A stretch of DNA of 64,000 nt from a virus: positions 1 to 64,000 of IMG/VR virus record IMGVR_UViG_3300024346_007254; one strand, written 5' to 3'. Positions 23,917 to 61,600 of this stretch are shown piece after piece. A program made the position numbers and the translations under genes. Numbering within the stretch: the stretch's first letter is position 1; each line of letters starts with the position of its first letter. The notes beneath the pieces were generated by a model that made no database searches, was not told the DNA's origin, and was given only the letters and a program-made list of their open reading frames with translations.

Positions 23917-23946
23917 TATTTATATGCTCAGTTTTTAGGTTAAATA
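23917..23946. promoter_or_regulatory. Divergent pair of late-promoter-like motifs
   Basis: TATAAATA on minus (23924-23917), 5 nt from ATG 23911. GTTAAATA on plus (23939-23946), 5 nt from ATG 23952. Confidence 0.65.
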
Positions 23947-29520: not shown

Positions 29521-30908
29521 AATAAGTGTGCCAATTCCGGAAATACTTTTTTAGCACTAACACCGCGTATTGCGTCCAGCTTAGTTACATATTCTTTAAA
29601 GTCAGGAAGTAGATATGAATTGTCTTGTGCATTCATATGATTTAGCACTCCTTCCCAACGTGCCCAGCCATACGGATTATTATCCCAAAATCCTTCTGAT
29701 TCGTGATGTGCTTTTAGATATCCTTTAAAACTCATAAAGTTTTCTTCTACTTCTTTTTTATCATCCTTAGGTAACATTTGTATACTTAAAAAGGTCGGAA
29801 TATATAACAGGTGCATGTTAAATAGTCCGCCGCCATGTAGAACAAAGGACGTCATTTCAGTATTAACTTTTTTAAAGTTTTGAGACATTTTCCAATACGC
29901 AAAATCAGGTAAGTGTTTAACATTAAAGATTTGTATTGCGGTTGCAATCGACGGAGATATATTATACGGAGAGTTGTCTAACATATGCATAGTCTCTTCA
30001 ATTGTATTCCAGTCACTTGGATGTCGAATGTATGCATTTCGTTGTCCGGTTGCATCAATACTTACACCAACTTTTACTTGCTGAAAGTAATTCCATAACT
30101 CCATTAAATCTTTGTCAATAAGTAATCCGTTTGTATTATAGCGTAGAATAATGTTTTTGGCATATCCTGATTTTACAATTTGTTCAATAAATTCTTTATG
30201 CTGCTTAATCATTAACGGCTCGCCACCGGCAAAATATACTTCTTTTAAATAGGGAATCTGTCTGTACATTTGATCCCAAAACTCTGGGTTTTCATGCCAT
30301 TTGTTATTAAATGTCATCTTGTCCCATTGTAATTGATCCTTAACTGTTTCACTTTCTAGTTGAGGAAATAGTTCTTGCCAATCTTTGACCCATTTACTAC
30401 TATCATGCGGACTGCACATAACGCACTTGATGTTACAAGTGTGTCCGAGACGTAAGTCAAGGTATTGTAGTTTATCCGGAACCCTGCCCTCTGGTGTTGT
30501 ATTAGATAGTAACTCGGTTAGATCTAAGTCACGCCTTGCTATCCATGCAGAAGTTTCCCACAAGCGTTTGCTTGCAACTCCTTTTGCTTCTTCTTCAAAG
30601 CATTTCGTACAACTAGCAGGAATGTTTCCTTCCATCATTGTTGTACGCACAGATCTCATGTAATCACTGTTCCATGCTTCAAGTGGTGTCATTTTTGCAA
30701 AATTAGAAGGATTACCGTTAACGTCTTTTACTAATCCTATAGTATGATCAGTGCCTGCGCCGCTGGCATTTGCAGAACAACAAAGGCGCATATCCCCATT
30801 TGGTCTAGTTGCTAAATGTATCCACGGAAGAGCGCACATTGTTTTTGTACCGGATTCTTCAATCACGTGCTGCCAATGTTCCATTATTCTTTGGCTGGAA
30901 TTTGACAT
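29517..30908 (-). CDS. Radical SAM protein, type C
   Basis: MCALPWIHLATRPNG..LCC..CTKCFEEE, CNIKCVMCSPHDSS, AGGEP. Close paralogue of 5469-6893. Confidence 0.9.
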   Translation of the reverse strand: MSNSSQRIMEHWQHVIEESGTKTMCALPWIHLATRPNGDMRLCCSANASGAGTDHTIGLVKDVNGNPSNFAKMTPLEAWNSDYMRSVRTTMMEGNIPASCTKCFEEEAKGVASKRLWETSAWIARRDLDLTELLSNTTPEGRVPDKLQYLDLRLGHTCNIKCVMCSPHDSSKWVKDWQELFPQLESETVKDQLQWDKMTFNNKWHENPEFWDQMYRQIPYLKEVYFAGGEPLMIKQHKEFIEQIVKSGYAKNIILRYNTNGLLIDKDLMELWNYFQQVKVGVSIDATGQRNAYIRHPSDWNTIEETMHMLDNSPYNISPSIATAIQIFNVKHLPDFAYWKMSQNFKKVNTEMTSFVLHGGGLFNMHLLYIPTFLSIQMLPKDDKKEVEENFMSFKGYLKAHHESEGFWDNNPYGWARWEGVLNHMNAQDNSYLLPDFKEYVTKLDAIRGVSAKKVFPELAHLL

Positions 30909-31514
30909 CTACTTTCTTCCAATCACTAAAAATCTATTATATAACGGCAACTCTAAAGTTTCCTTACAATATATACTATTTAATCCGCAAAAATCAGCAA
31001 ACTTATCTGCATCAACTTCACAGCGTACATGCTCCGGAAGGGAAGTATAATTATTGCTCTGCAAAATAACTAAACTGCTATCAGGTACACGAGATAACCA
31101 TAAGTCGTAATGATCACGTGTTAAATGTTCAGTACTTGTGTTAATTACATATTCGGGTTCTGTTTCATAATTCCATGCTGCCATGTCAGAGGTATGTGCA
31201 TGAAAGCGGCTTTCCATTTCAAACCTCTTGTTAATCATATTAGCAACTTCTTCGCAGCCTGGATCAATATCAATACTATCTATGTGATTAATTGGAATTT
31301 GGCTGTTAAACATCAAGCTTGCAAGCACTCCGTTCCATCCGCCGTGTATAACAGCGTTAGCAGGTTCAGAGTGTGCATATTTTTGCAAATGTTCAATTAG
31401 CCAAACTTTGCTATAAACTTGACCACGCCAAAAGCTTTCCAATGTGCCAAAGTAGTTTTCACTTTGTCTAATTGCATCCATCCAAAAAATAACATCTTCT
31501 ATTTCTACTTTCAT
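30909..31514 (-). CDS. Class I SAM-dependent methyltransferase-like protein
   Basis: IHGGWNGVLA, IDSIDID, VINTSTEH. Confidence 0.65.
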   Translation of the reverse strand: MKVEIEDVIFWMDAIRQSENYFGTLESFWRGQVYSKVWLIEHLQKYAHSEPANAVIHGGWNGVLASLMFNSQIPINHIDSIDIDPGCEEVANMINKRFEMESRFHAHTSDMAAWNYETEPEYVINTSTEHLTRDHYDLWLSRVPDSSLVILQSNNYTSLPEHVRCEVDADKFADFCGLNSIYCKETLELPLYNRFLVIGRK

Positions 31515-32428
31515 GGGTTTAATAAAATCTTTTTCCAGTGTTCTATAGTTTTAGCAATACCTTCTTCGTATGAGACTTTAGGTGCCCATCCAGTTTTTTC
31601 TGTAATCAAATTATGATTGCTGTTAAGCCACCATATTTCTCCATGGCGTGGATCTTTGGTATCCCAATTAATAGTGCCCTTCCAGTCTAGCTGCTCGGCA
31701 ATATAATTTGCACAATCTCTAATTTTGCGAGGATCGTCTGGACCAATTGTAAAGATGTTTCCTTTACAAGTATCTCTGTTTTCAATAACAGCCATCCATG
31801 CATCTAACAAATCGTCAATATAGATAAAGTTACGATATGGTTCGGCATATCCAAGATTACATTCATCACTTGTTAGCATTTGTGCTATGATGTGCTCAGT
31901 TATAAAAAAATCGTTATCCTTGCGCCCATAAGCATTTGTTTGTCTAAAGCTAGCCCACTCTAGTCCGTATGCACGTTCGGCGTACTCGAGATACTTTTCA
32001 CAGCCATACTTAGCAACTGCATACGGCGCGTTAGGATGAGGTTGCGTATGCTCGTCAAATGCAACACGGGTTGTGTATGTACCTGTATTTTCAACTTCGT
32101 CGCTAATTGGTTGCCAACCGTAAACTTCCATTGTGCTAGCAAATACAAAGTATGGCATTGGATCAACTTGTCGACATGCTTCAATTAAGTTAACTGTTCC
32201 TACATAGTTCACCTCACTAAAACTAACCTGCTCGTAAAAGCTTTTTTGTACTTCTGTTCGTGCTGCTAGGTGCACCACAATATCCGGAGCAACTGCTTTC
32301 ACTTCGTCTTGTACTGCAAGGTGATCTGTTAAGTCACTTTTGAGATCAACAACTTCTCCTAGTTGTAGCAAGCGAGGCAGCAAATGCTGTCCAATAAATC
32401 CGCTTGCGCCTGTAAGTAATATTTTCAT
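31511..32428 (-). CDS. NAD-dependent nucleotide-sugar epimerase/dehydratase (extended SDR)
   Basis: LTGASGFIG, HLAA, ASTMEVYG, PYAVAK (YxxxK), RNFIYIDD. Confidence 0.9.
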   Translation of the reverse strand: MKILLTGASGFIGQHLLPRLLQLGEVVDLKSDLTDHLAVQDEVKAVAPDIVVHLAARTEVQKSFYEQVSFSEVNYVGTVNLIEACRQVDPMPYFVFASTMEVYGWQPISDEVENTGTYTTRVAFDEHTQPHPNAPYAVAKYGCEKYLEYAERAYGLEWASFRQTNAYGRKDNDFFITEHIIAQMLTSDECNLGYAEPYRNFIYIDDLLDAWMAVIENRDTCKGNIFTIGPDDPRKIRDCANYIAEQLDWKGTINWDTKDPRHGEIWWLNSNHNLITEKTGWAPKVSYEEGIAKTIEHWKKILLNP

Positions 32429-33486
32429 TTTTGTACCTTTTTTAAAAAATTATAATTATCGGGAATTCTTTTTATATCAAATGTTTGATGATAGTGTTCA
32501 CGCTGATCAATATCAGGAATACCTTGGATTGCATCAAGAATGGAATCAGAGGCGTGCTCGTTTGTTTGAACAATGTTTAACAGGTTATTAAAATTGTAAA
32601 GAACTTTCTTTTGTAATTTATTTTGTAATTCTGTTATATCGTATTGACAAAGTTTGGCAACTTCTTTCATAAACATTTCACAACGCTTTTCGTCATCAAG
32701 CTCTTTATCAAATGAATAATCTATTACTTCGTCAAACAGTTTAAATCCCATTTTCTTTAAATATCGATGAGTATAAGGAGCACCAGATATTAAAAACGGA
32801 CGTTGATGATAAATTGGAACATAAGTTTTTTCTGTAATAAACAATGCACGTGGATGCGACTCGCTAATAATGCTAAACAAACTATCTTTAAATTCTTCAG
32901 GAGGAATAAAGATATTTAGAAATGAATGGAATTTTTTAGCTTCGATCCATTTTTGATCGAATTCCATTCTTTCAGGCGTCCACCATTTAAAGTCATATTG
33001 ATAACTCCACTCCTCGGTATTATGCCAACTTATAAATCCATGTTGAAATAAATTTTCTTTGTACATGTAATCAATAAACATGCACCTCCACGGATGTGCC
33101 CTGCCGTTTAAACTAGTAAAATGTTTAGTAATTTCTTTATTATGTCCGAACGGTCTGACTTGATTTTCAAAAGAATGACGAAGAACAAAGTTAGCAAAAA
33201 AGGTGGGCCAGCTTCCAGTTACTTCCGGAACGCTATTTAGAAAATAGTTTGGACTTAACTTACTGTCTAATACTGCGCCTGTGATAATTTCTAATTTAAC
33301 ATTATGAAAATCTAAGAATCGTTTGAAAAGCGTAAATGATGTAGGATCGGTATAGAGGGTGGCAGCTTCCCATTCCTCTGGAGAAAAAACTATCAACTTT
33401 TCAGGTTTATTATCCGATTCAATGAGATCAACTAGATCTTTAAGTTCGGATGCGCCCCAAGGGAAAAAATATTCTACGCTGCTCAT
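32425..33486 (-). CDS. GT10-like (fucosyltransferase-motif) protein
   Basis: SIISES..FITEKT..RPF..G..LKKMGF, resembling the GT10 E-N/S..Y(I/V)TEK signature. Confidence 0.45.
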   Translation of the reverse strand: MSSVEYFFPWGASELKDLVDLIESDNKPEKLIVFSPEEWEAATLYTDPTSFTLFKRFLDFHNVKLEIITGAVLDSKLSPNYFLNSVPEVTGSWPTFFANFVLRHSFENQVRPFGHNKEITKHFTSLNGRAHPWRCMFIDYMYKENLFQHGFISWHNTEEWSYQYDFKWWTPERMEFDQKWIEAKKFHSFLNIFIPPEEFKDSLFSIISESHPRALFITEKTYVPIYHQRPFLISGAPYTHRYLKKMGFKLFDEVIDYSFDKELDDEKRCEMFMKEVAKLCQYDITELQNKLQKKVLYNFNNLLNIVQTNEHASDSILDAIQGIPDIDQREHYHQTFDIKRIPDNYNFLKKVQK

Positions 33487-33494
33487 TGTATACC

Positions 33495-33502
33495 TATAAA
33501 TA
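33495..33502 (+). promoter_or_regulatory. T4-late consensus promoter motif
   Basis: TATAAATA 4 nt upstream of ATG 33507. Confidence 0.65.
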
Positions 33503-33506
33503 TGTT

Positions 33507-34097
33507 ATGTTCGAAATAGTAACAGAATTTGAAAATAAAATTGCTGAGTTCTTTGGTGCGCCGTATGCAGTGTCAACTGATTGCTGTACGCATGCCATAG
33601 AACTGTCTTTATTATACACTAATCCTCGACGTTTGTCTATACCTTATTACAATTACTTATCTATACCTATGACAGCTAAAAAATTAAATTTGAACTGGAC
33701 ATGGCACGATAAGCATTGGGAAGAATATTACAAATTAGAATTTACAAATATCTACGATGCTGCTGTGCTTTGGAAACAGAACAGTTACATCAAAGGATCG
33801 TTTATGTGTTTAAGTTTTCAATACCGAAAGCACCTTAGTCTAGGACGAGGAGGCATGATACTAACTGATGACCGTACTGCATACACAGACTTGATTAAGT
33901 TAGGATATGATGGTAGGACACGAGATAAGCCCTGGGCAGAACAAGAAGTTGATTCACTTGGTTATCACTATTATATGACACCCGAAATTGCACAAACTGG
34001 GTTAGATAAATTGCCCAGTGCAATTGCTTCTACTCCAAAAAAGTGGAGTTGGAAAGACTATCCAGATTTAAGAAATATGCCATTATTCGCCAAATGA
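33507..34097 (+). CDS. Compact DegT/DnrJ/EryC1/StrS-family PLP aminotransferase
   Basis: EFENKIAEFFGAPYAV..CT.AI, IYDAA, LSFQYRKHLSLGRGGMILTDD, LGYHYYMT. Confidence 0.85.
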   Translation: MFEIVTEFENKIAEFFGAPYAVSTDCCTHAIELSLLYTNPRRLSIPYYNYLSIPMTAKKLNLNWTWHDKHWEEYYKLEFTNIYDAAVLWKQNSYIKGSFMCLSFQYRKHLSLGRGGMILTDDRTAYTDLIKLGYDGRTRDKPWAEQEVDSLGYHYYMTPEIAQTGLDKLPSAIASTPKKWSWKDYPDLRNMPLFAK

Positions 34098-34856
34098 TCT
34101 AACATTAACAGTTTCAAACACCGTTGGATATTCTTGACTTAAAAGAACATTAATTGCAGGAATCAATTTGTCAAAGTTTTTATTTTTTTGAGCAATAGCT
34201 TTTATGTCATTGTGTATTTTTGTGAATGTTTCTTTAGTTGAATCTTTTATTAGCCTACCTACATCACTGTAAATTGTCTCTGCTATCTCCAAATGTTTTA
34301 GCACGTCGGGATGAAAATCGCCCTCTACAGTACCAAAAGCCGGAGTTTTATGATCTTCGATTTTTAAGAATTTCATCGTAGGAAATGCAGTCGAATATAA
34401 CTGAAACATTTTTTGATTTGGAGTTTTAACAACACGGTCTTCGTCTACAAAGAGTCTAAATCCTGTTGCTTGCCATGATACATTGTAAAGCCTATTAGCA
34501 CAGATTATTGCTGTAGAATTTTTAACAGCATCGTTATCAGAATCCCAATACTTTTTTATAAATCTCTTATCATAGCCAGCACTTCCGGGGTTTAGAACAG
34601 ATCCGTTTGGAAGCCAATTGCCATCTTTTATTCTATCTTCCCTGCTCCAACTGGACCAAAGTATATAAATTTGATCGTCATCTTTAAATTTGTGAATTAG
34701 ATCTGCCTCAAGAAGGCGGTGGAAAATTCCTACGTTTCCTAAACCAGCAAGCGCATAATTACAATACTCAATTCCTTGATCGTATGCAATTATGTCTGCC
34801 CAGGTCGGCCAGCAGTACTGTGTAAAACTGCATCCAAAAGTAAAAATTCTACTCAT
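34083..34856 (-). CDS. SGNH-like hydrolase or acyltransferase (G-C-S)
   Basis: FTFGCSFT..WAD..N.A.AG.GN..WS..SRED..DFHP. Confidence 0.65.
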   Translation of the reverse strand: MSRIFTFGCSFTQYCWPTWADIIAYDQGIEYCNYALAGLGNVGIFHRLLEADLIHKFKDDDQIYILWSSWSREDRIKDGNWLPNGSVLNPGSAGYDKRFIKKYWDSDNDAVKNSTAIICANRLYNVSWQATGFRLFVDEDRVVKTPNQKMFQLYSTAFPTMKFLKIEDHKTPAFGTVEGDFHPDVLKHLEIAETIYSDVGRLIKDSTKETFTKIHNDIKAIAQKNKNFDKLIPAINVLLSQEYPTVFETVNVRSFGE

Positions 34857-34863
34857 ATCATTC

Positions 34864-34888
34864 CTTAAATATAGTATGAGTATTTATA
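34864..34888. promoter_or_regulatory. Opposed late-promoter-like motifs serving divergent genes
   Basis: CTTAAATA on plus (34864-34871), 4 nt before ATG 34876. TATAAATA on minus (34888-34881), upstream of an AAGGA RBS and ATG 34856. Confidence 0.6.
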
Positions 34889-35883
34889 GCACCAATGAGT
34901 GGGATCCACTAAAGAAGGTTGTAGTAGGCGTAGCCGATTATGCACGTATTCCAGAAATGGACAAAAGTTTACGTTGTATCAATTATGCAGACAGAGACAA
35001 TGTAAACGATGTAGTTGCTGGGTTGTATCCCCAACAGGTTGTAGACGAAAGTAATGAAGATCTAGAAACATTTGTTAAGTTTTTAGAAGGAGAAAGTGTT
35101 GAAGTTGTAAGACCTAAGCGCACTCCGGATGTAAAATATTATAACTATTGTCCTAGAGATACTGTGTTTGTACACGGTACTAAAGCACTTGCTGCACCAA
35201 TGGCACTCGAATCAAGAGCCGAAGAGTGGAAATATTTACTGCCAGGTGCAGCACCAATTGAAATCGGTGCAAGGACTAGTAGAGAAGGGTTATATGACGA
35301 GTCATGTGTAGGCAATCCTGATAAACTTGCACTCACTGAGACTTCGCCTTGTTTCGACGCTGCTAATGCTATCAAAGCTAATGATGACGTATTGTACTTG
35401 GTCAGCAATAGTGGCAATAAAGCTGGCGCTACATATTTACAAGATTGGATTAACAAGCCTAGAAACAATTTTGTCGATCCTGGAAATATTAAAGTTCATA
35501 CACTCGAAAATGTTTATAGCTACATGCATATCGATAGCACTATTGCGTTTTTAAGAGAGGGGCTGTTGCTTGCTAATCCAAGTCGTATTAAAGACAAAGA
35601 CATGCTGCCTGCCCCATTTAATAATTGGGATATAATTTGGGCACCCGAACCAGTTGATGCAGGACATTATCCCGGACTGTGTAATAGTAGCATTTGGACA
35701 TGGAACGTAAACTTGTTCAGCGTCAACCCAAACCTAGTCGTGTTAGAGGAACATCAGGTGCCTACGCGCGACGCACTGGAGGCATACGGTATCGAGTGCG
35801 CTATGTTGCCACTAAGACACGCACGCACGTTAGGTGGGTGTTTTCACTGTTGCACGCTAGACCTTGTGCGTAAAGTTTCCTGA
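34876..35883 (+). CDS. Amidinotransferase (glycine / inosamine-phosphate amidinotransferase family)
   Basis: STNEWDPLKKVVVG, YCPRD, FDAAN, MHIDST, LGGCFHCCTLD (catalytic Asp/His/Cys). Confidence 0.9.
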   Translation: MSIYSTNEWDPLKKVVVGVADYARIPEMDKSLRCINYADRDNVNDVVAGLYPQQVVDESNEDLETFVKFLEGESVEVVRPKRTPDVKYYNYCPRDTVFVHGTKALAAPMALESRAEEWKYLLPGAAPIEIGARTSREGLYDESCVGNPDKLALTETSPCFDAANAIKANDDVLYLVSNSGNKAGATYLQDWINKPRNNFVDPGNIKVHTLENVYSYMHIDSTIAFLREGLLLANPSRIKDKDMLPAPFNNWDIIWAPEPVDAGHYPGLCNSSIWTWNVNLFSVNPNLVVLEEHQVPTRDALEAYGIECAMLPLRHARTLGGCFHCCTLDLVRKVS

Positions 35884-36645
35884 GTCGATAATTTTAATAA
35901 GCCGTTCGGCAGTATCAGAATGAAAGCCAGGGCCGTCGTGGTCAAAATCACGTGCTCGATCTTTAATGTCCGGACTAACAAACCAAAGCTTGCGAGAACT
36001 AATGATGACCTCTTGTTCAATGTCGTCGTCCCAGGTCCAGTTAAATACCGGAACGCCTAGCGATTCCCAAATGTTATTGAAATTTTCAAACCAGATAAAG
36101 TTGTTAAAACTCATTTCAGCAGTATCGACTATATATCGTTTACCCCACCATCTTCCGTCATGCGTTGGAGTTTCGGACATATCATTAAATTCTAAAAACT
36201 TTTGTTCAGTAGAAGCAAACATTTTTCTTGATTTTTGAGGCCACTGTACTATAACTAACTTTGGCAAGGGTAACTTATTAGTTTTCCATAAGGTAGTATT
36301 GTAGTATTGTATATCCATTCCAGTAGCACCTTTGGCGCAATTATATAAATCAAGATTTAGATGAGTTTTTAGAGTGTGGTTCCAAATTTGATCTTCGCAA
36401 AGTCCTATGCCTTCGGTATAACTGCATCCAAAAGTTAAAAGAAAATCGTCATTAAGATCCTCGATGTTTTTTGTTCTATGCCCATATTTGTTAAATTTGT
36501 ATTCAATCTCATATTCAAATTGTTTTTGAAATTCGAGAGGTTGTTTTAAAAACTTTTTCTCAGAATCAGCACTATACCATTTTAAGGTTTGGTTTGCACG
36601 ATCCGTGTCGCACAGTAAAGGTTTATCGCGATACCATTGTAGCAT
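35857..36645 (-). CDS. SGNH-like hydrolase or acyltransferase (G-C-S)
   Basis: YKFNKYGHR, TFGCSYTEG, ARDFDHDG. Start at ATG 36645 with an AGGA RBS. Confidence 0.65.
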   Translation of the reverse strand: MLQWYRDKPLLCDTDRANQTLKWYSADSEKKFLKQPLEFQKQFEYEIEYKFNKYGHRTKNIEDLNDDFLLTFGCSYTEGIGLCEDQIWNHTLKTHLNLDLYNCAKGATGMDIQYYNTTLWKTNKLPLPKLVIVQWPQKSRKMFASTEQKFLEFNDMSETPTHDGRWWGKRYIVDTAEMSFNNFIWFENFNNIWESLGVPVFNWTWDDDIEQEVIISSRKLWFVSPDIKDRARDFDHDGPGFHSDTAERLIKIIDSGNFTHKV

Positions 36646-36655
36646 TTTAGTTCCT

Positions 36656-36676
36656 AATAAATATATTGTATTTACA
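36656..36676. promoter_or_regulatory. Opposed late-promoter-like motifs serving divergent genes
   Basis: AATAAATA on plus (36656-36663) and TGTAAATA on minus (36676-36669), in the gap between divergent genes. Confidence 0.5.
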
Positions 36677-38050
36677 TTGGAGTTGATAGATTTGTTTTCA
36701 GAATGGTTTGGCGGAATATTTTTTCGTGCTAGGGGAAAACTATCCCCTAAGTTAGTTTTACAGGATGGCACTCTAATCGTAAATCCTGATGTACAAAAGT
36801 ACGATGTCTTAAGAGAATTGCTTGAGGAATCGCAGTTAAAGTTCGAAGACCGCCCGATGATATTGTATAACGGTACGCATAACATTCATCACCTAGACAA
36901 GTTGTTTGTTACAGATCATTATCGCAAAGTATTACAAAATAATCAAGTTGCTGTGTACTTTTTTGAACCATTAACACACTACGATCCTAGTGACGGGTCG
37001 CATCCGCACATTATAAAAATTGATAATGCAGATAACGAGATCGAGCAGGTAAGATGTCACGAACTTGATAGTTTACAGGAATGGGCAACTGCCAACGAGA
37101 TTAACGATATATGTGTTTATTGTACTGATTACAAATCATGGGAATATTATCAACCCTTGTACCCAAAACTAAAGCTATTTTCATTTGATCTGTTTGTTTC
37201 TTGGTATGTTGATCGTGCTACATTATTTGAAAAAAGACATCCATCTGGGCCATTGCCACAAAAACTATATGCTGATAAAATTATAAAAAAATTCTGGTCA
37301 GGTGCTTGGCGATACGAACCTTATAGAAACTTTATATCAGCATACTTAGCCGGGCGTGGAATTGCACAGGAAAGCCACGTGAGTTTTTATTTTAAGGTTC
37401 CAAATCGTGAATTGAGAGATAGGCTTTGGTTTGACTGGGAAACGTTTCATAAAAAGCATCCTATGGTTGCAAATACTGTTATGCAAGGAAATCAGATATT
37501 GCAAGAAATTGTTCCATTGTCAATTGAAGTTGAAAACCCAAAAGCTCTAGACGAAAGTAGAAACGATCCTGAAATTTGCACCAATGGAGAATTTAATATA
37601 AGAGGAGATCAAAATCCGGTTAAGTCATATAAAGAATCGTTTTGTGTTATTATACAAGAATCAAGGTTTAGTCAGCCATGGCCAAATATTAGTGAAAAAA
37701 CTCTCAATGCAATAATCAATCAACGACCTTTTATTATGTGCGGGCCGCCGGGCACGTTGCATATGCTAAGAGAAATGGGGTTTCAAACATTTGACGGTTA
37801 CTGGCCAGAAGATTATGATGAGATTGTATCAAATCAAGATCGATTAGCAAGAATATGCGAAGTTATTGATTACGTTAATTCTTTTAGTATTGATGATTTA
37901 AAACAAGTATACGGTAATATGCAGTCTATTTTGTTTCATAATAACGAAAAGATTAAAGACGTAAATAATTTTTATTTTAATCTAAATGACAACCTTAAGA
38001 GAAATTTTCAAGATATAAAAGATCAGCCCAATAATCGTGGGCTGCTTTAG
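36677..38050 (+). CDS. GT10-like protein (paralogue of 32425-33486), start uncertain
   Basis: VIIQES..NISEKT..QRPFIMCG..LREMGFQTF..YD. Confidence 0.45.
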   Translation: MELIDLFSEWFGGIFFRARGKLSPKLVLQDGTLIVNPDVQKYDVLRELLEESQLKFEDRPMILYNGTHNIHHLDKLFVTDHYRKVLQNNQVAVYFFEPLTHYDPSDGSHPHIIKIDNADNEIEQVRCHELDSLQEWATANEINDICVYCTDYKSWEYYQPLYPKLKLFSFDLFVSWYVDRATLFEKRHPSGPLPQKLYADKIIKKFWSGAWRYEPYRNFISAYLAGRGIAQESHVSFYFKVPNRELRDRLWFDWETFHKKHPMVANTVMQGNQILQEIVPLSIEVENPKALDESRNDPEICTNGEFNIRGDQNPVKSYKESFCVIIQESRFSQPWPNISEKTLNAIINQRPFIMCGPPGTLHMLREMGFQTFDGYWPEDYDEIVSNQDRLARICEVIDYVNSFSIDDLKQVYGNMQSILFHNNEKIKDVNNFYFNLNDNLKRNFQDIKDQPNNRGLL

Positions 38051-38762
38051 TATGGTGCCAATATTCTTGTCCGTCGACACTAAACCCCTGATCCAAGCAA
38101 TGTTCAAAGAATGATAACTTACTATTGTTGTATCCAATAAATCTTTCTTTAATAATCTTATTCTGATAATATTCATAACGAGCACCGGTTGCACACGATT
38201 GAAATGCATTTTTAAAAATAAAAGGAAATCTGTTTGCTTCAAGTATTGTTTGCAAATTAATGATATTTAAATATCGATTAACTTCCCAATGCTCATTACT
38301 AATAAACATCGACTTCGATAATGTTTTAGCATTCCTTCTTAAATTGCTTGGAAAAACAGGAGCATAATGGTCCGGATGTATGTGTCCAACATTTCTGTCC
38401 GCTACATAAGGAAGAAATTGCCAATAGTTGTCAGTTTTAGAATGATCAAAAAATATTTCAGATCTACTGCTTCCTGTCCAGTGTATTAAGTATAAAGTAC
38501 GCTTGGCCATTGCGGCATGATCTAACATCCACATTGACGTAGTACGATTTATATAATCATTACTTGCACCCGGGAGTGCAAGGTTAGTGTATACAACACC
38601 TAGTTTTCTAGCTAACTGTGCTCCAAAGCAATTGTCGCGATTATAGTTGCCTTCGCCAATGCCCGAGCCTTCAATTTCGCTGCCGGCGGTATGGCTACAT
38701 CCATTAATTAAAATATGCTCAAAGTCATATTTTTTCTTTCGGAATGATAATATCTGTGCCAC
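37995..38762 (-). CDS. SGNH-like hydrolase or acyltransferase (G-C-S)
   Basis: INGCSHTAG, NLALPGASN, HWT...R, YWHH...H. Confidence 0.65.
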   Translation of the reverse strand: MAQILSFRKKKYDFEHILINGCSHTAGSEIEGSGIGEGNYNRDNCFGAQLARKLGVVYTNLALPGASNDYINRTTSMWMLDHAAMAKRTLYLIHWTGSSRSEIFFDHSKTDNYWQFLPYVADRNVGHIHPDHYAPVFPSNLRRNAKTLSKSMFISNEHWEVNRYLNIINLQTILEANRFPFIFKNAFQSCATGARYEYYQNKIIKERFIGYNNSKLSFFEHCLDQGFSVDGQEYWHHTKAAHDYWADLLYLENFS

Positions 38763-39690
38763 AGTGACAATGCTCCTTACTACAAATTACAGGCTTAAGA
38801 TTAAGTTTTAGATCTTTGTCTAAAATGTTTCCGTGTCTATTTCCAACTCCGCAACTAGCACTGCTTATTTGTCCAATTGGGTTGATGAACAAAGCGTCAT
38901 CAACTGAACACTTCCATCCTTTAAAAAAATTCTGTCTTGCTGCTATTATTTCATTACTATTTACCGGACGAGTTGTACCGTTATTATAATGTGCAATACT
39001 GATTGCTTTATTAGTTCTATGCGGCTTGGGTATACGCATTACTGTTTCAAATTGTGCTTCTGCAAGAAACTTTTCTTTAGCAGGATCTTTGTATTTCCAT
39101 GGACCTGCATTAACGCTCATTTCATCAAACAAAGGTGTCCATTCTAAATTGTAGTTTGGTACTTCTTGTCTTACACGTTCGCCAAAATCAACTACCTCCC
39201 AAAAACGCTCTTCGTGCATTAACATTTTTGTGCATAGATAATCTACCTTATCGCATAAAAATTGTGCATTTTCAATGTATCTATCTTTTTTACAAAACTC
39301 AACGTGAAAGCTTGCTACAATATCATCAAACAAATGATAGTGCTGTTCCCAATATTTTAGTGGTCTTGACAAATTGGTATTAATTGCTACTGTTAACTTG
39401 TCGCCCATTTGTTCTTTTAAATATTCAGTGAGTGGAATAAAGTTTTCCCAATATGCAGGTTCGCCGCCACTAAGAAAAATCTTAAAATATCGATACCCCC
39501 TGTCCTCGTATTGACGGAATATATCCATTACATTTTTCTTGTATAAATCTAGGTTGCCGTTGTTTTTGCTGTCGCCTGCCCAATTGCCTGGATTGCAATA
39601 ACTGCATTGAAAATTGCAGAAGTTATTCACTTGCCATGTTATGCTAAGGTACGGTTCGGCCATTGGAGTTATTTTAGTTAGTTTATTCAT
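38725..39690 (-). CDS. Radical SAM protein, type A
   Basis: WQVNNFCNFQCSYC, SGGEP, ASFH, WKC..ASC..CSKEHCHCGTD. Confidence 0.9.
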   Translation of the reverse strand: MNKLTKITPMAEPYLSITWQVNNFCNFQCSYCNPGNWAGDSKNNGNLDLYKKNVMDIFRQYEDRGYRYFKIFLSGGEPAYWENFIPLTEYLKEQMGDKLTVAINTNLSRPLKYWEQHYHLFDDIVASFHVEFCKKDRYIENAQFLCDKVDYLCTKMLMHEERFWEVVDFGERVRQEVPNYNLEWTPLFDEMSVNAGPWKYKDPAKEKFLAEAQFETVMRIPKPHRTNKAISIAHYNNGTTRPVNSNEIIAARQNFFKGWKCSVDDALFINPIGQISSASCGVGNRHGNILDKDLKLNLKPVICSKEHCHCGTDIIIPKEKI

Positions 39691-40273
39691 TTATTAATTT
39701 AAACAATCTTTTTGCAAATATATCATGGGTTCTTTTATTAGGGTGTCCATCTTTTAACGCTTTGTAATAACCAAATTTTTTAAAAACAATATCTATATTT
39801 ACATTGTTCCAGCTTGGTGGATTTTTAATTATTAATTTATTATATGTATGCAAACTATTAATTGTTTGGCTAACTCTATTTTTTAAAAAGTAATTAGCTA
39901 AGTTAGCATTCATAAAAAAATCTAAACAATCATCGTAGTCGTTTTGATACTTAGCAAAAAACCTCTGCCATACTTCTTCTTCTTGCCAGGAAGCTAGTTG
40001 TTCCCAATAGCGTCCATTCCAGACTCCTCTACGAGAAGGAATGGACCAATTTATTACAACAATGTCTGTTTTTCTAAACTCTGTTTCAAGTACTGTTGCT
40101 GTTATTTGCTTAGAAGATGCTCCGGTATCGGACCTATTAAGTTCTTCTCTTCCAAGCATATTTGATAACGTAGTAGAGAATCCAAGCTTGCTAGGAGGAT
40201 CATTGACTGTTAAGCAGTCATCTAATTCTAATCCATATACGTGACTGCATCCAAATGTAACTAATCTAGGCAT
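39683..40273 (-). CDS. SGNH-like hydrolase or acyltransferase (G-C-S)
   Basis: TFGCSHVYG, N.S.TGAS, NWS..SR, DGHP. Confidence 0.7.
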   Translation of the reverse strand: MPRLVTFGCSHVYGLELDDCLTVNDPPSKLGFSTTLSNMLGREELNRSDTGASSKQITATVLETEFRKTDIVVINWSIPSRRGVWNGRYWEQLASWQEEEVWQRFFAKYQNDYDDCLDFFMNANLANYFLKNRVSQTINSLHTYNKLIIKNPPSWNNVNIDIVFKKFGYYKALKDGHPNKRTHDIFAKRLFKLINE

Positions 40274-49651: not shown

Positions 49652-49659
49652 TATTTATA
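49652..49659 (-). promoter_or_regulatory. T4-late consensus promoter motif overlapping the upstream stop codon
   Basis: TATAAATA on the minus strand. Confidence 0.6.
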
Positions 49660-54992: not shown

Positions 54993-55613
54993 TTATCCCT
55001 CGCTCAACCCGCTAAGGCTTTGTACTCTAACAGTATAGTCAATTTGAATTAGTCTGTTCAAACTTTTCTGTACAGGATGGAAAATAACATGAGTTAAAAG
55101 CCTTCCTGTGCCTGTTGAACTAAACCCTCGTAGTCCTAATTCATCAAAAACATAAATTTGATCTGTGTTTGTTGCTGTATCAAATGCGTCTTGGCCGTTA
55201 GGCTCGCCGTAGTCTAACAAACAACTAACTAAAATATCAGTATAATTGGTTCCTGAAACATGTCTAATTTCAGTTTTATTTCTAGTAGGATCTAAGTTGT
55301 TAACACTTCTATCGTCAATAACTTTTGAATAAGTTTCGTTGTACAAGCTAGCATTTGTGCCAACTGTATTCGGAGTCAAATATGTAATGATGCCTGTTGG
55401 ATCTACACTCGTGCCGCCGTTGCCGAAGCTTAATTCATATACAAATCCTTGACCAGAATTGGCCAAGCTTTCTGCTAATGATAAACTCATGTTTTCATAA
55501 TGAATAGCATTACGCTTGTTAATAAAAGTTTCTCCCGAAGAAGGATCAAATATTTTAATATGACCTTCTACATGTAAACCACTGTAATCTTTTAAATCTG
55601 TCATTCCTACCAC
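54993..55613 (-). CDS. Virion structural protein (baseplate/tail associated)
   Basis: Lies between the wedge-like and fibre genes. FDELGL..LLTHVIFHPVQKSLNR motif. Start may be ATG 55604. Confidence 0.65.
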   Translation of the reverse strand: MVGMTDLKDYSGLHVEGHIKIFDPSSGETFINKRNAIHYENMSLSLAESLANSGQGFVYELSFGNGGTSVDPTGIITYLTPNTVGTNASLYNETYSKVIDDRSVNNLDPTRNKTEIRHVSGTNYTDILVSCLLDYGEPNGQDAFDTATNTDQIYVFDELGLRGFSSTGTGRLLTHVIFHPVQKSLNRLIQIDYTVRVQSLSGLSEG

Positions 55614-55621
55614 CTATACTG

Positions 55622-55629
55622 TATTTATT
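55622..55629 (-). promoter_or_regulatory. T4-late-like promoter motif overlapping the upstream stop codon
   Basis: AATAAATA on the minus strand. Confidence 0.55.
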
Positions 55630-58600
55630 TAGGTAACTCTATTGTTGCTTCTCGCAAGAAATTGCCTATTGCATTTTTCGATCTAGCCAAAGATTTTCCT
55701 GATTCATTCCACACTTTACCAATTTTTCTTAGTACGCGAACCTGTGTTTCTGGTGCAGGTTGCAGGGACGAATCCAAAATAATCATATTTCCGTCTAGAA
55801 TATATTCTGGGGCTAAAGTTTCGTCGCCGGCTGGGCTATCTTGAGCAATTGATGGATTAAATCTTTCAACTGCAACCTTTCTAAGTCTGCGACCGCCAAC
55901 AAACACATCAATTTCGTTAATGCTAGATGGTGTAAAATTAAGTTCATAATCAATACTTCCATCAGACATAATTATCTGAGTCAATGTTGTGTCGTTATAA
56001 TTAATATTTTCCTCTGGGCCTTGGCCGTATGCTATTATGCCTTCGTTGTATGTATCTCTAACACCTGTTCCGAGAGTACCTCTTCTTAGCTGTCTTACTG
56101 TGTTGCCTTGTACTTCAAAGTACTCAATTCTTTCGCCTTCGATGAATAGTACTCCAGGTATATTTCTTGTTTTGTCAGGTTGGAAAATTCCGCTTGTGTC
56201 TTCCAAAACAATTCTCACATCATAGTAATTTAGCGGAGATGCTAGTTTATAACTGTTATCCTGGTTAAGTCTCTTGTAATGAGTTCTATTCAACATATCC
56301 TTGAAAATTCTATAACCAAACTTTTTAGTTACTGGTTGAGCGCCAAACTGTATTACGTCAATTACGTCGCCAATTTCAGGATCGTTAGTTAGTTGCACAG
56401 CGTCAAGAGATATAGCCAGGCTATAATCAACATTTGGAGTCAACAAGGTTCCATTTAGTGCCACCCATGCATAGTTTGCATTTGTAATGGTTCCTCTTAG
56501 CGGAATATATCCACTCGAAATTAAGTTTCTAGTAGTAGACTCGCTTGGAGAGATATCCAACGGAACCTCGTTAACAACTTTGTAAGTAAATCGTTCAAAA
56601 TTATTAACGTCGTGATTACTAAATTGATATATTTCAACTGTTGAATCTGCTGCCGGTGCTTCAGCAAATGTTAGTGTTTCGCCTGATGTATAGATTACAT
56701 CGTCAACAGTTAGAACGGTGCTGTCAGCATCGTCAACTGATGCAACAAACTGGTCTCCATTAATAAATGCGTCTCTGATATCTTCTCGTATACTTTGAAT
56801 TACAACTATGTTACTATTTACAGATACAATTGTTCCTGTGTAAATAGTGCTTGTAGCTAGTGATTCTAATGTTAATTCTCCACCAACCTCTGCGTAGTTT
56901 GAAATTGTGTCGCTGTCGAATTCAATTTGTGTGTCTACAAAGTAATATTCAGCGTTCTTAATTACATAGATGTCTAGTCGTGTGCCTGCAGGGGCTACAT
57001 CTGGAGTAAGTAATTCTACTCTTACGTTTAATGGATCAAAGCTATATAGCGTTGATGACAATTGTACATAATCGGCAAATACTAGGACGTCTACGCTTTC
57101 CAAATCCTCTCCAGTAAACTGCCATTCTTCGATGTCATAAACTCTTGATGCTGTAGTAGTGTAAGAAACACTGTATCCTGGATTTAGAATTGTGTTGTCA
57201 ACTTTAACAAGAATGTTATGCGAGATTGGTTCTTTACTAAACGGCACTGGAATTATTTCGCCATCAAATTGATAAGTTTTAGTTATACCATCTGGAATAA
57301 ATGTTCTATCAATAATAACTTCGCTATAAGTCTTAACATTAGTACCGTAAACACTGTACTGAACAAAATCGCCTTCGGCTAACAGACCTTGTGCAAAAAC
57401 AATTTTTAATCTATCTACAAATCCATCTGTTGCGTCGGATTGAAGTAAAGTATATCCTTCACGAGCAACTTCGCCATTGACTAGAACTAGTGCAGAAAGT
57501 TCATCAGTCCAAGTTGCCGAAGTTACAAAAGTAATCGTACTTCCGTCGGAAACAAATGTGTTAGTATCGATTAGATCTGCGCCATTAGTTCCAATAGTTG
57601 TTATAGCAAGACTTGCACCTGTATTTGTATTATTATCATTATACAACAGTAATTCATTTTCAAAGTCAATTGAATAAGAATCGTTACCTAATATAACGTT
57701 GTTAATTTTAACAATGATTCCTTCGTTGCTTTGTGGCATTCCTGGTAGTGGAAATTCTGTAGTCACTCCGTCAAGTCTGTAGTTTGCAGTTGCAATAACT
57801 CCAATACCTTCAGATGGTCTATGATATACACGAATATCTAATGTGTCAACAATCTCTCCAGGAACAAGTTCTTCGGGTCCTTTTGAAGTAGTTGGAGTAA
57901 CAAAACCGTCGCCGTCGATATTAATTTCTCCTGCATCAATGCCAGTTGCAGTTGAATATGCAAGATTGCCGCCTTCTAATTGAGTGTCGAAGTTTATAGC
58001 ACTACTTGCGCCATCGCTTGTGCTCTTTCTAATTACAATAAGGTCGCCAATTTCGGTTGTGATTTCTTCACTAATTGTAATTGTGGTTGTAACACCATCG
58101 CCAACAATTGTTTGCATAATTGCATTTGGGTTTTGAGTTGGAGTGCTTCCATCATATACAGGATCATCAAGTCTGATTCCATTTCTATAGAAGTTATACT
58201 CTGCGCCGTCTTCAAGTGGCTGACTTAGCTCAAATATAACAGTACTTCCATCTAGCACAAAAACTTCATCTTGTGCATCGTCAAATGTATCCCACGGAAG
58301 AGATGCCCATCCAGCAACGTCCCAGCCTTGCTCATTTCCAAAGTCAAAGCTATCAATTTGTACGCCGCTGTATTCAACACCGTCCATTAATTGAGACAAG
58401 TCTTTACCTAGCATACCAGTTGTTGGATTATAGAAGAAGTTAATTCTGTCTGCTGCTTGTAGCAACGAAACTTCCTTCTTATATTGAATTTCGATAACTG
58501 CATCTTCACCAGGTGCTTCTGCAAAATCAATAAATCCTGTAAATCTGTCATATCCTTTTGAAGTGTCAAGATCATTTCCGACATCAAAAGAACTTTCAAG

Positions 58601-61600
58601 CTGTTCAATACCGTTAACAATTATAGTGTAATTAGAAGTGTTAACGCTCATTGGCCATTGTAGTTCAAATTTTTCTCTAGCAGATGTACCTACAAACGTT
58701 TCTGTTTTATCTAATTCTGTAAACAAGTAAGATCCGCTTACTCTATCAAACTTGATAGTCATATGCATTCCACGAACTTTACCATTGCCTAGAATTGCAA
58801 CAGCTTTTGCAGGGCGACCAAATTGATCAACAGCGCCAACAATGTTAATAGTTGGAGCAGTATAATAAGTAGATCCAGTATTTTCTATTTCAATTGAACG
58901 AACTGTTCCTCTGCTTACGAATGCCGTTGCTACTGTTCCTTTATTTCCTTCGATCTCAATTGTTGGAGTTTCAAGGTAGCCCTGACCTGCATCTGCAATA
59001 TCAATTCTTACAATTTCGTATCCGTTATTGTTAGTCCATTGGTTAAACGGTTCTTCAAAGTATAGGCCGCCAACACCAAATAATGCATCGCCATTTTGAG
59101 TTGCAATATTTGTTAAAATACTTCTTGTTACAGCATCATAAGACGGCGGTAAATCAAAGTCCGTTGTTAGGGTTTCAGTCGGTTCTAATTTTTCATAAGA
59201 ACTAATGTATTCTCGAACTTTTGTTTTGTATGGCTTAACTTCGTTAACATAATCTTCGTAATTTTCTAAGTTGTCATTTTGGAAGGTAACTTTTTGTGTT
59301 AGTTCACCAAGATTGTGCTTGGCTCTTACAAAGCTAGTTTTAAACGCCCAATCAATATCTGCTTGCTCAGAAAATGCATATCTCATACTTGCAAAGAATA
59401 ACTTGTTCCATTCAACTGCTAAGTCTCCAATAAACAAATCGTCTCTTAAAGAAGTTAAGATATTTCTTAATTCAACTACCGGTTCTCTGTCATAAAAAGC
59501 ACTGTCGTAAATATTAGAATCAAATCCGCTAGTTGTAGAAGCATAATCGTACAATCTAGTCGAAAGCTGGATTGTTCCATCTTGTCTACCAATTGTTTCA
59601 AAGTTAACAGTAAAATCTTGTGTAAATTGATCGTCAACTTTACGTAGAAGTAACCAACCTCCTGATCCAACACTTTCAACTTTTATAATATCACCAATTT
59701 CAGCATCGATACTTGCTAACTCAAAAGTCTGTGCTAGTATTCGGTTGATTGCTGTTTGAGAACTATATCCTTCTGCGTACCAATCTGCATAATCCCAGTA
59801 ACGTGTTGTATCAAACGCTTGGTTGTCTGAGCGTGACCATTCCTGCGATGTTTTATCCCAAGTATAAATTGCCCAACGACCGCCTATTTCCTCATCACTG
59901 TTAACAAGAACACTAAATTTTCTAACTGTTAATTTAGTATTACTAGTGTAATTTTTTCCACCGTTTTTAATGTTAACACTTGTAACTTGTCCAAGATTAT
60001 TAATTGTGGTTTGGATTACAGCTGACGCGCCTTTATTGTCACTGATCTTTACAGTAGGTGCAACAGAATATCCTCTACCAGAGTTAATAATGTTAACTCC
60101 GACAATTCGAGTATTTTCAATAACCGGTTCTAATATTGCTTGCTCTACTTTAGCAACGCCAACAAATCTTAACTGAGCAACACTATCAATTACGCTATCG
60201 TACTTTCCTTCAACAGTTAAAGGTGGTTCGTCTTTTAGTAATAGAGATGTAAAATCTTTTCCATCAACTACTTGAGTGTTTACTAGAACGTCATTAACTC
60301 TTTCCACAACCTGCTTAACTGCTTCAAGTCTGTTAATAAACATACTCTGGCGAGGGAAGTTTAGAATTCCGTACTTTTGCTTTACAGGAAGTTCTGGATC
60401 CGGAACGTTGTTGTTATTTTGATCATATCCAACTAAGCTGTCAACCCACTTAGATTGAACCTCGACATTAATAATACTAGTGTCAAGTCCTTCAGTAACT
60501 AGCTGATATTCTCTGTGTAGGTTTGTTTGTAAAGTAGGATCCTTAGCAAAGCTAAAGTGCAAAATAGTATTTGTACCTTCTACAAAGCTTCTTGAATTAT
60601 AAATTGCAAACTTATTTGTGTCAAGCGGTGCAACAAATCGGTATCCCGAATTTGCAGGATCTCTAATAATTTCTGCAACGTCAAATGCGCTCAATCTTCT
60701 AGTACGAAGTTGTGGAACAATTCTTTTATTCTTAACCCAATAGAAGTATTTTGTACTAAATGTTCTTGAGATATTGTCGTAAACTCTCTTTGAACTGTAA
60801 ACACTATTGCCGTACAATGTAGTACCGCTAATGTTTTTAGCAAAGCCTTCGTTTGTATCAGCAAGACGGTTCCAATCTGATGGAAGTAAATCAGTGCTTA
60901 TCCATTCGTATACATCAACTGACGAACCAGGCGTGATTCTATTCCAATTGTTTGCTCTATACTGAGACTCGCCTTGGTAAGGATTGTACCAGCTTACAGT
61001 GCTTAGATCCCACCATAGCTGCCCCACTTGCTTGTCTGTCCAGTTTGATTCACTATCAACTACTACACCCTGCACTCCTGCTGTATTAATCGAGTACACT
61101 GCTGGATCATAGAAAGTTTTATAATCAAGTTCTTGCTCAGCAGGACCTGCAATTTTACCTTGTCTTGGATCTACAATATCAAGTTCAGCAATAATATCAT
61201 TTAAATCTTTTGAGTACAAGAAGCAACGTGAAATCTTTGAGATATCAATTTTGCCGTCTTCTTGTGTAATAAGTGTCCAGCTATTAGCATTTCTTTCTGC
61301 TCGCATATCAACAAACATTCCAACCGTTGAATCGTTGTCGACATAATTTCCAACAAGGTCATCATTTGTTAATGCCGGATTTAATTTAGGCAATCCGATG
61401 TAGATATGGTTATCAATTAATTTAAAGTTTGAAAGACTATTAAACTTTGTGTCTCTATTATAATTGATATCTTCAGCAAAGATGAATGCATTTCCAATTT
61501 GTTGGAAGAGAGCAATTCTTCCAGTATCGGCACGCTTAGTCATAAATCGTGTTGTTCCGCCATCGTATGTTGTGCTAACTTCGCTACGAGTAGTATTTTG

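Follow-up and report, generated by a model that had tools for sequence, protein, structure and literature searches.

A half-size DegT aminotransferase and a StrB1-like amidinotransferase linked in marine viruses: a candidate route to a guanidino sugar

IMGVR_UViG_3300024346_007254 is a viral contig of 74,882 bases from IMG/VR, with a CheckV completeness of 21%. Its bases 1–64,000, referred to here as the window, contain a 4.4-kb module predicted to encode three enzymes: an extended short-chain dehydrogenase/reductase (SDR) of the kind that acts on nucleoside diphosphate (NDP)-sugars, a half-size aminotransferase of the DegT family (here called mini-DegT) that would use pyridoxal phosphate (PLP), and an amidinotransferase resembling StrB1. 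An initial annotation had proposed this three-enzyme set and likened it to aminoglycoside synthesis. It did not mention two more genes of the same interval, a GT-B-like paralogue (32425–33486) and a DUF6071-like gene (34083–34856). All three genes are indeed present under genetic code table 11, which gives a compact, tight and conserved gene map. Alternative codes (TAG read as glutamine, or TGA as tryptophan as in table 4) were considered as an explanation for the short DegT gene and the alternating strands, and were rejected, since they bring no improvement on that map.

The three enzymes of the module

The mini-DegT open reading frame (ORF) matches the Pfam family DegT_DnrJ_EryC1 (8.5e-15), with only positions 163–235 of the 360-position profile matched. 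The start given in Table 1 is the most likely one, because an TATAAATA box ends 4 nucleotides before that ATG and because homologues share the N-terminus MF(D/E)IV. The short length is typical of the family: 30 distinct homologues from viral loci have 195–233 residues, all homologues listed have 193–233, and among 8000 proteins found at E ≤ 1e-5 in a profile search the best 120 all have 193–205. It was considered whether the gene is a pseudogene or fragment, and this was rejected, given homologues of the same length and a compact, confidently predicted fold.

The AlphaFold2 (AF2) model has a mean predicted local distance difference test score (pLDDT) of 93.8 and seven strands. Aligned with VIA-align, it superimposes on sugar aminotransferases with a best Z of 19.5 and a root-mean-square deviation (rmsd) of 2.5 Å over 187 of its 196 residues (Foldseek 7e-10); for WlaRG, DesI, perosamine synthase and ArnB, the values are Z 18–19.5 and rmsd about 2.5 Å over 185–190 residues. 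Apart from AHBA synthase, all 50 structural matches listed (Z 17.3–19.5) are aminotransferases or dehydrases that act on sugars or sugar phosphates. The targets have 357–442 residues, and the aligned span covers roughly residues 30–320 of them. Compared with the DegT/DnrJ/EryC1/StrS family of NDP-sugar aminotransferases, the phage form is predicted to keep the PLP-binding core fold (the fold-type I large domain) and two cofactor-binding residues: K108 of an SFxxxK motif, which aligns with the Schiff-base lysine of the aminotransferase motif, and D84 of a DAA motif, the aspartate that binds the pyridine ring. These two residues and S103 are invariant in 21 homologues. It differs in that it lacks the C-terminal small domain of the usual two-domain architecture of about 360–400 residues, and in that some 45 residues of the large domain are deleted. 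It also has CCTHA in the place of a G(T/S)xAL sequence, which we take to be the phosphate-binding motif expected at that position. On the basis of the model, the mini-DegT would be the PLP core of a sugar aminotransferase without its C-terminal small domain, and it belongs to a large viral family. The earlier assignment to the DegT family therefore stands, but the likeness to StsC that went with it does not, since a half-size protein is not StsC-like in architecture.

The mini-DegT is also present in two genomes described as huge phages, LR756502.1 (642 kb; H8) and LR756511.1 (595 kb; H10), and in the cultured Flavobacterium phage immuto (H11–H14), where it is annotated beside mannosyltransferase and pilin-glycosylation genes. 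A tblastn search with the amidinotransferase gave no match in these records.

The amidinotransferase ORF has no match in Pfam or NCBIfam. A phmmer search of the PDB, in which the ranking is by bit score only, placed StrB1, the inosamine-phosphate amidinotransferase (1bwd), first with 2.6e-54 and 187.6 bits over residues 6–332, ahead of HsvA (1e-32, residues 7–333), AGAT (3.5e-27, best stretch 147–333) and SxtG (7.8e-25, residues 3–333). The catalytic aspartate (CPRD), histidine (MHIDS) and cysteine (FHCC) are all present and align with the StrB1 motifs. Across 19 diverged viral amidinotransferases R94, H218, D220, H324 and C325 are invariant, and D95 and D161 are at least 90% conserved. The protein further resembles StrB1 in its full-length alignment, in its length class of about 335–348 residues, in the FDAAN aspartate and in that neither protein has a long insertion relative to the other. 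It is thus predicted to be a complete amidinotransferase of the AGAT/StrB1 type (pentein fold), as the initial annotation had said. The start adopted in Table 1 is likely to be correct, rather than 34792, because of the N-termini of homologues and a TTAAATA box 5 nucleotides upstream.

At E ≤ 1e-10 the enzyme has 2730 homologues. In a tree of 65 rows it falls in a viral clade of 20 rows with a Shimodaira–Hasegawa-like approximate likelihood ratio test (SH-aLRT) support of 100; the other three main clades are a bacterial one that includes Streptomyces StrB1-type sequences, a second viral one (jumbo phages) and an alphaproteobacterial one, the tree leaving the branching order among the four unresolved. 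The bacterial relatives in the 80 best loci are at most 40% identical to the phage enzyme. The analogy with streptidine synthesis drawn earlier is not supported by this phylogeny, which places the phage enzyme outside the actinomycete StrB1 clade. A separate clade (L179–L227) consists of homologues of about 355 residues, around 30% identical, that are widespread in genomes of marine Rhodobacteraceae and Pelagibacteraceae. A search for fused forms, which is weak evidence either way, gave only one long homologue, a 777-residue TauD/TfdA dioxygenase–amidinotransferase fusion (P0241) from Streptoalloteichus hindustanus, and no DegT–amidinotransferase fusion. In Campylobacter phages of the CP220 type a possible glycine amidinotransferase was annotated long ago; it is 24% identical to the enzyme of the window.

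The SDR matches Pfam Epimerase (PF01370, 2.7e-40) and GDP_Man_Dehyd (3.4e-37) and the PHROG family 'nucleotide-sugar epimerase' (2.6e-58), in keeping with the NDP-sugar epimerase/dehydratase proposed at first. It carries the GxxGxxG Rossmann motif (GASGFIG), the catalytic YxxxK (YAVAK), which is kept in all 84 family members checked, and an S-T-M-E motif, shared by 18 distinct orthologues in loci that have the amidinotransferase. The top NCBIfam matches are dTDP-glucose 4,6-dehydratase and LegB, both far under their cut-offs (for TIGR01181, 110.6 bits against a cut-off of 365), and the best match in the PDB is the UDP-glucose 4-epimerase 4zrm (2.5e-29). In this motif RmlB has T-D-E, while GMD, UXS and ArnA have T-S-E, and the glutamate marks dehydratases and decarboxylases. 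In S-T-M-E the glutamate is retained and a methionine stands in the Asp/Ser position. The motif thus leans towards dehydratase or decarboxylase chemistry, which would give a 4-keto product. The superfamily assignment is solid, and the enzyme is presumed to be the source of a keto sugar.

Table 1. Positions of the module genes, neighbouring genes and other features in the window.
Feature	Position	Strand	Basis or remark
201-residue protein with class-I methyltransferase-like motifs	30909–31514	−	motifs only; often accompanies the module
Extended SDR, NDP-sugar dehydratase/decarboxylase/epimerase type, 305 residues	31511–32428	−	Pfam, PHROG, motifs
GT-B-like paralogue (family 0), 353 residues	32425–33486	−	all-against-all BLASTP cluster with the 36857–38050 protein
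Mini-DegT, 196-residue PLP-dependent sugar-aminotransferase core	33507–34097 (ORF 33450–34097)	+	Pfam, AF2, VIA-align
DUF6071-like protein, N-terminal motif FGCSFT	34083–34856	−	SGNH-like by motif only; between mini-DegT and amidinotransferase
StrB1-like L-arginine amidinotransferase (predicted), 335 residues	34876–35883 (ORF 34792–35883)	+	phmmer against PDB, motifs
Second DUF6071-like paralogue, motif TFGCSYT	35857–36645 (likely start M at 36645)	−	syntenic in all close relatives
GT-B glycosyltransferase (predicted), third conserved partner	36857–38050	+	AF2 (pLDDT 88.7), Foldseek, VIA-align
Third DUF6071 paralogue	37995–38762	−	Pfam DUF6071, 3.3e-13
TATAAATA boxes near starts	33495–33502; 34881–34888; 49652–49659; 23917–23924	+; −; −; −	exact matches
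Baseplate hub-like gene and gp25-like gene		−	first in structural order
gp6-like wedge gene, 1144 residues		−	PHROG, 2.4e-298
Open frame of about 4,570 codons	55625 past the window end (55625–64000, on to G000:C1:69337; L229 1–5337)	−	
Three fibre-like genes	49.6–55 kb	−	
Enzyme genes, about 47 kb			after the fibre-like genes in minus-strand order

A conserved and virus-specific gene pair

IMG/VR was scanned for the amidinotransferase, giving 65 loci, to which the locus of the cultured Synechococcus phage S-SCSM2R was added, and the mini-DegT was sought by tblastn within 10 kb. It is found in 43 of the 47 viral loci with at least 50% amidinotransferase identity and in 6 of the 19 with 34–37%. 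Genetic linkage to the aminotransferase in other genomes, on which the initial annotation had made its proposal depend, is therefore present. Wherever both genes are found they lie on the same strand, with one exception (L034). Among 42 non-redundant loci the mini-DegT is followed directly by the amidinotransferase in 13, and in 6 of those 13 a GT-B gene (family 0) is directly downstream. The lineage of the window has one to three opposite-strand genes, DUF6071-like or glycosyltransferase-like, between the two.

The reverse search gave a different proportion. Patterns for the mini-DegT find at least 599 viral stretches, and among the best 80 there is an amidinotransferase in 31 and an SDR in 53. 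No mini-DegT occurs in any of the 80 loci of bacterial amidinotransferase homologues. The pairing is therefore conserved, virus-specific and asymmetric, the amidinotransferase being nearly always accompanied by a mini-DegT but not the other way round. Because so many fewer of the mini-DegT-centred loci contain it than contain an SDR, the amidinotransferase looks like an optional addition to a core that makes an amine.

The neighbours were clustered (2,947 ORFs from 145 loci, the main families being named by Pfam) and counted over 91 non-redundant mini-DegT loci, 42 with an amidinotransferase and 49 without. Two kinds of tailoring enzyme are confined to the loci without it: a hexapeptide acyltransferase-like protein (0/42 against 9/49) and a methyltransferase (family 24; 0/42 against 16/49). 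Families concentrated in the loci with it are GT-B (family 0; 24/42 against 5/49), DUF6071 (family 7; 17/42 against 0/49) and carbamoyltransferase (13/42 against 1/49). UDP-glucose/GDP-mannose dehydrogenases occur in both (12/42 and 14/49), as do SDRs (18/42 and 38/49), those beside the mini-DegT in loci without an amidinotransferase being mostly of an S-S-S-E type. This is the grammar of amino-sugar pathways, in which a keto sugar is formed and transaminated and its amine is then tailored, and the amidinotransferase occupies the place held elsewhere by an N-acyltransferase or a methyltransferase. It is mainly for this reason that we take the amine which the mini-DegT would place on the sugar to be the acceptor of the amidinotransferase.

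Several features of these loci may be added. Mini-DegT loci lacking an amidinotransferase (L076, L118, L077, L086 and about 40 more) have a UDP-glucose dehydrogenase and an S-S-S-E SDR, resembling the Ugd/ArnA/ArnB route to 4-amino-4-deoxy-L-arabinose (Ara4N), together with a hexapeptide acyltransferase-like gene, a methyltransferase and a 137-residue protein of family 14 (28/49 loci). The carbamoyltransferase is of NodU/CmcH type (Pfam 8e-52; L052:11005–12531 and 12 other loci) and is often one or two genes downstream of the amidinotransferase. A member of a small family (family 9) often adjoins the amidinotransferase (23/42 loci with it, 2/49 without); its label as a 2-oxoglutarate (2OG)-Fe(II) oxygenase comes solely from the annotation of S-SCSM2R, and Pfam has nothing for families 9, 13 and 14.

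Genomic setting and neighbouring genes

The minus strand of the window carries structural genes in the order listed in Table 1, the very long open frame being between the gp6-like baseplate wedge gene and the fibre genes. Read along this strand, the enzyme cluster comes immediately after the baseplate and fibre genes. A conserved structural protein of 206 residues (54993–55613) has as its nearest relatives proteins of Sinorhizobium phage Phosso, Agrobacterium phage Atu_ph07 and enterobacterial jumbo phages of 340–375 kb; the source DNA is for this reason assigned to a marine jumbo myovirus, of which it is a fragment, and not to a cyanophage as such. Megablast of positions 30000–40000 against isolated phages gave no match.

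The enzyme region (7–44143, about 45 kb), of which the module is a 4.4-kb part, contains at least 16 radical SAM genes by Pfam. In seven of these (5469, 7972, 24625, 29517, 40266, 41542 and probably 2113) the usual domain order is reversed, with a SPASM-type cysteine domain on the N-terminal side of the radical SAM core. The radical SAM protein at 38725–39690 and one of family 60 from a related locus were searched against the PDB with phmmer, and match only QueE, MoaA and viperin-like chains at E ≥ 5e-5. No BtrN match was found among solved structures for these two, so a BtrN-like step finds no backing.

Exact TATAAATA boxes are not enriched in total (5 in the window against 8.4 expected). Four of the five are within about 35 nucleotides upstream of a start codon on the correct strand (starts 33507, 34856, 49625 and about 23911), and they precede, among others, the mini-DegT, the DUF6071 gene starting at 34856 and a gene at 49625 between the fibre genes and the cluster. 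This placement is striking, and the box is a signal resembling the T4 late promoter.

The AF2 model of the third conserved partner is predicted to have the two-Rossmann-domain GT-B fold. All its listed Foldseek matches are GT-B-fold proteins and nearly all are glycosyltransferases, the remainder being glycogen phosphorylases and the N-terminal domain of a trehalose-phosphate phosphatase, which have the same fold. VIA-align gives Z 10.5 for the α1,3-fucosyltransferase of H. pylori (2nzw) and 10.1 for T4 β-glucosyltransferase. The protein aligns with its paralogue beside the SDR at 18% identity (alignment A3), and the representative of family 0 has a weak Pfam match to GT10 (3.6e-4), below cut-off. 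Atlas neighbours of the DUF6071-like protein are virus-only clusters. The methyltransferase-like protein (30909–31514) has no match in Pfam, NCBIfam or the PDB; it was considered as a relative of guanidinoacetate methyltransferase (GAMT), which was rejected, as no solved chain, GAMT included, matches it. Its family (family 8) is found in 15 of 42 loci with an amidinotransferase and in 5 of 49 without.

A possible guanidino sugar and its comparison with known systems

On the basis of these observations, we hypothesise that the module is a phage-borne line for tailoring nucleotide sugars, which makes a guanidino sugar that is transferred inside the infected cell to an acceptor, most probably a component of the virion. 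We put this at about an even chance. Acting by 4,6-dehydration or oxidative decarboxylation, the SDR would oxidise an NDP-sugar and so yield a keto intermediate, whose ketone the mini-DegT would transaminate to give an amino sugar. The amidinotransferase would then move the amidino group of L-arginine to this amine through a Cys-amidino intermediate, giving the guanidino sugar and ornithine, and the adjacent GT-B enzymes would pass the sugar to an intracellular acceptor, for example the fibres encoded upstream. The enzyme identities, catalytic residues, folds and virus-specific gene linkage are as described above; from them we infer the order of the steps, the identity of the sugar, the timing of amidination relative to glycosyl transfer, and the acceptor.

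The product is best read as a guanidino sugar because the surrounding families are nucleotide-sugar and glycosyltransferase enzymes. The initial annotation had offered a guanidino sugar or a guanidino cyclitol. Nothing supports the latter: among about 50 ORFs of the window scanned, many of which match nothing, there is no Pfam or NCBIfam match to a cyclitol-pathway gene (inositol-phosphate synthase, cyclitol dehydrogenase or full-length StsC). As to the acceptor, a hydropathy scan of 55 cluster ORFs gave no convincing transmembrane segment, the peaks being PP-loop or Rossmann-like stretches or a spurious N-terminal extension. There would thus be no polyprenyl-phosphate transferase, flippase or exporter, which favours a cytoplasmic target over an exported antibiotic or a surface-polysaccharide pathway complete in itself. 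Together with the proximity of the fibre genes, this makes us lean towards a cytoplasmic macromolecule, such as the virion proteins.

A number of points weigh against the proposal of a guanidino sugar on the virion. No sugar nucleotidyltransferase was recognised in the window, and we know of no guanidino sugar in any glycoconjugate, nor of any precedent for an amidinotransferase acting on an NDP-sugar. The type of the SDR is ambiguous, its best structural match being an epimerase and its best NCBIfam match a dehydratase, and all matches being far below family cut-offs. Several loci, including that of S-SCSM2R, have no SDR within 10 kb and have a radical SAM gene after the mini-DegT instead. 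The mini-DegT, without the C-terminal domain of full-length DegT enzymes, may bind another kind of substrate or need a partner. Finally, the adjacency to fibre genes is not conserved in loci of the cyanophage type.

Two other readings are unlikely, to a similar degree. The first is a free secondary metabolite, an aminoglycoside-like or other guanidino compound acting on competitors or on the host; the initial annotation too had named a bioactive molecule as one option. Among solved structures the nearest to the amidinotransferase is StrB1, and the cluster is of very large size, with many radical SAM genes. Carbamoyltransferases, which also occur in aminoglycoside and other antibiotic pathways, are frequent neighbours. 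In addition, a 2025 paper on S-SCSM2R lists its ORF305, ORF306 and ORF309 ('AHBA synthase', labelled AHBA_syn-like, radical SAM and 'inosamine amidinotransferase') as antibiotic synthesis genes, without experiments (PMC12801897). However, the phage amidinotransferases form their own fully supported clade at a distance from the best bacterial loci, and among the ORFs scanned Pfam and NCBIfam find no exporter or resistance gene, nor the cyclitol enzymes named above, and there is no membrane protein. The several GT-B genes per locus and the position behind the fibre genes are also better explained by glycoconjugate synthesis.

The second is that the substrate of the amidinotransferase is a small amine other than a sugar (glycine, lysine or a polyamine), as for AGAT, AmtA or HsvA, the enzyme's link to the mini-DegT reflecting amine supply or co-regulation only. 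The characterised members of the family mostly use small amines, and AGAT, HsvA and SxtG are all among the matches. The missing C-terminal domain of the mini-DegT would fit, as would the methyltransferase-like gene that often accompanies the module, GAMT-like genes having been reported in surveys of auxiliary metabolic genes of ocean viruses (PMC11360552). This must be set against the fact that no solved chain, not even GAMT, shows detectable similarity to the methyltransferase-like protein, that the listed structural matches of the mini-DegT are all sugar enzymes or AHBA synthase, and that its usual partners are SDRs, UDP-glucose dehydrogenase and glycosyltransferases.

About as improbable as these, if anything slightly more so, is a sugar placed on the phage DNA, that is, a glycan hypermodification of 5-hydroxymethylcytosine or 5-hydroxymethyluracil, in which case the cationic guanidino sugar would shield the DNA from nucleases and make packaging easier. 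The cluster enzymes are all soluble, the GT-B model matches the T4 β- and α-glucosyltransferases (Z 9–10) about as well as it does fucosyltransferases, and DNA hypermodification with diverse glycans has been demonstrated for phage pairs of glycosyltransferase and sugar epimerase (bioRxiv 10.1101/2023.12.21.572611). However, the cluster is in the structural and not the replication region, and the cluster ORFs scanned include no DNA C5-methyltransferase, replication gene or other DNA-metabolism Pfam family, in records that are fragments, 21–48% complete, so that their absence weighs little. There is no Tet_JBP match in this contig or in four related partial genomes (113–170 kb), although control genomes are equally silent, so this is uninformative.

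Remodelling of the host surface (lipopolysaccharide, capsule or S-layer glycan) for superinfection exclusion, through the host's export machinery, is the least probable: phage sugar-modifying genes can alter O-antigens, and S-SCSM2R has kdsA/kdsB and many glycosyltransferases near a second, distant amidinotransferase-like gene, but the 47 kb here contain no polyprenyl-phosphate transferase, flippase, polymerase or other membrane protein, and the phage appears from its structural genes to be a lytic-type jumbo myovirus.

Returning to the guanidino sugar, a more specific form of the proposal can be offered only tentatively, and we think it rather doubtful as a whole: that marine phages make a guanidinylated sugar by means of the virus-specific pair, perhaps acting as a complex, and attach it to their own fibres, capsid or DNA, where its fixed positive charge would alter adsorption or help to evade host defences. 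If the proposed chemistry is true, the substrates of amidinotransferases would include nucleotide sugars or glycans as well as small amines and cyclitols. In that case the module would also define a minimal sugar aminotransferase of 196 residues, add a permanently cationic sugar to the known decorations of phage surfaces or DNA, and assign a role to a gene pair that occurs in dozens of marine viral contigs at the least, with thousands of homologues in metagenomes.

Each of the enzyme families is familiar, and the presence of the trio in one cultured phage had been noted before. The new elements are the conserved, virus-specific pairing, in some loci followed immediately by a GT-B gene; the replacement of N-acyl and methyl tailoring enzymes by the amidinotransferase; and the separate viral clade. 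The literature, of which coverage was incomplete, yielded no publication that deals with the mini-DegT form, the conserved pairing or guanidino sugars in glycoconjugates.

Comparison with known systems helps to place the module. From StrB1 itself the phage enzyme differs in being only about 37% identical to its Streptomyces homologues, in its separate and well-supported clade, and in its partners, which are a half-size DegT and GT-B enzymes rather than the genes of a streptomycin cluster. With the Ugd/ArnA/ArnB route to UDP-Ara4N and similar amino-sugar routes it shares the logic of making an amine and then tailoring it. The loci without an amidinotransferase come closest to that route, sharing the UDP-glucose dehydrogenase, the S-S-S-E SDR and an acyltransferase-like or methyltransferase gene; in the phage module the amine-tailoring enzyme is the amidinotransferase, and there is no ArnT-type membrane transferase.

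The closest cultured comparison is S-SCSM2R. It is a T4-like cyanophage, and the neighbourhood of the pair differs in having GT25-like genes and 2OG oxygenases and no SDR. The distant amidinotransferase-like protein of this phage, ORF266 (L228:10354–11247), is 22% identical to the enzyme of the window (7e-14), its gene adjoins kdsA/kdsB, and it has been reported in the virion proteome (PMC12801897). The pair itself is well conserved: the mini-DegT homologue is 53% identical and the amidinotransferase 62%, and they lie 2.1 kb apart among glycosyltransferase genes. Since this phage is in culture on Synechococcus WH7803, the question of what the pair makes is directly testable.

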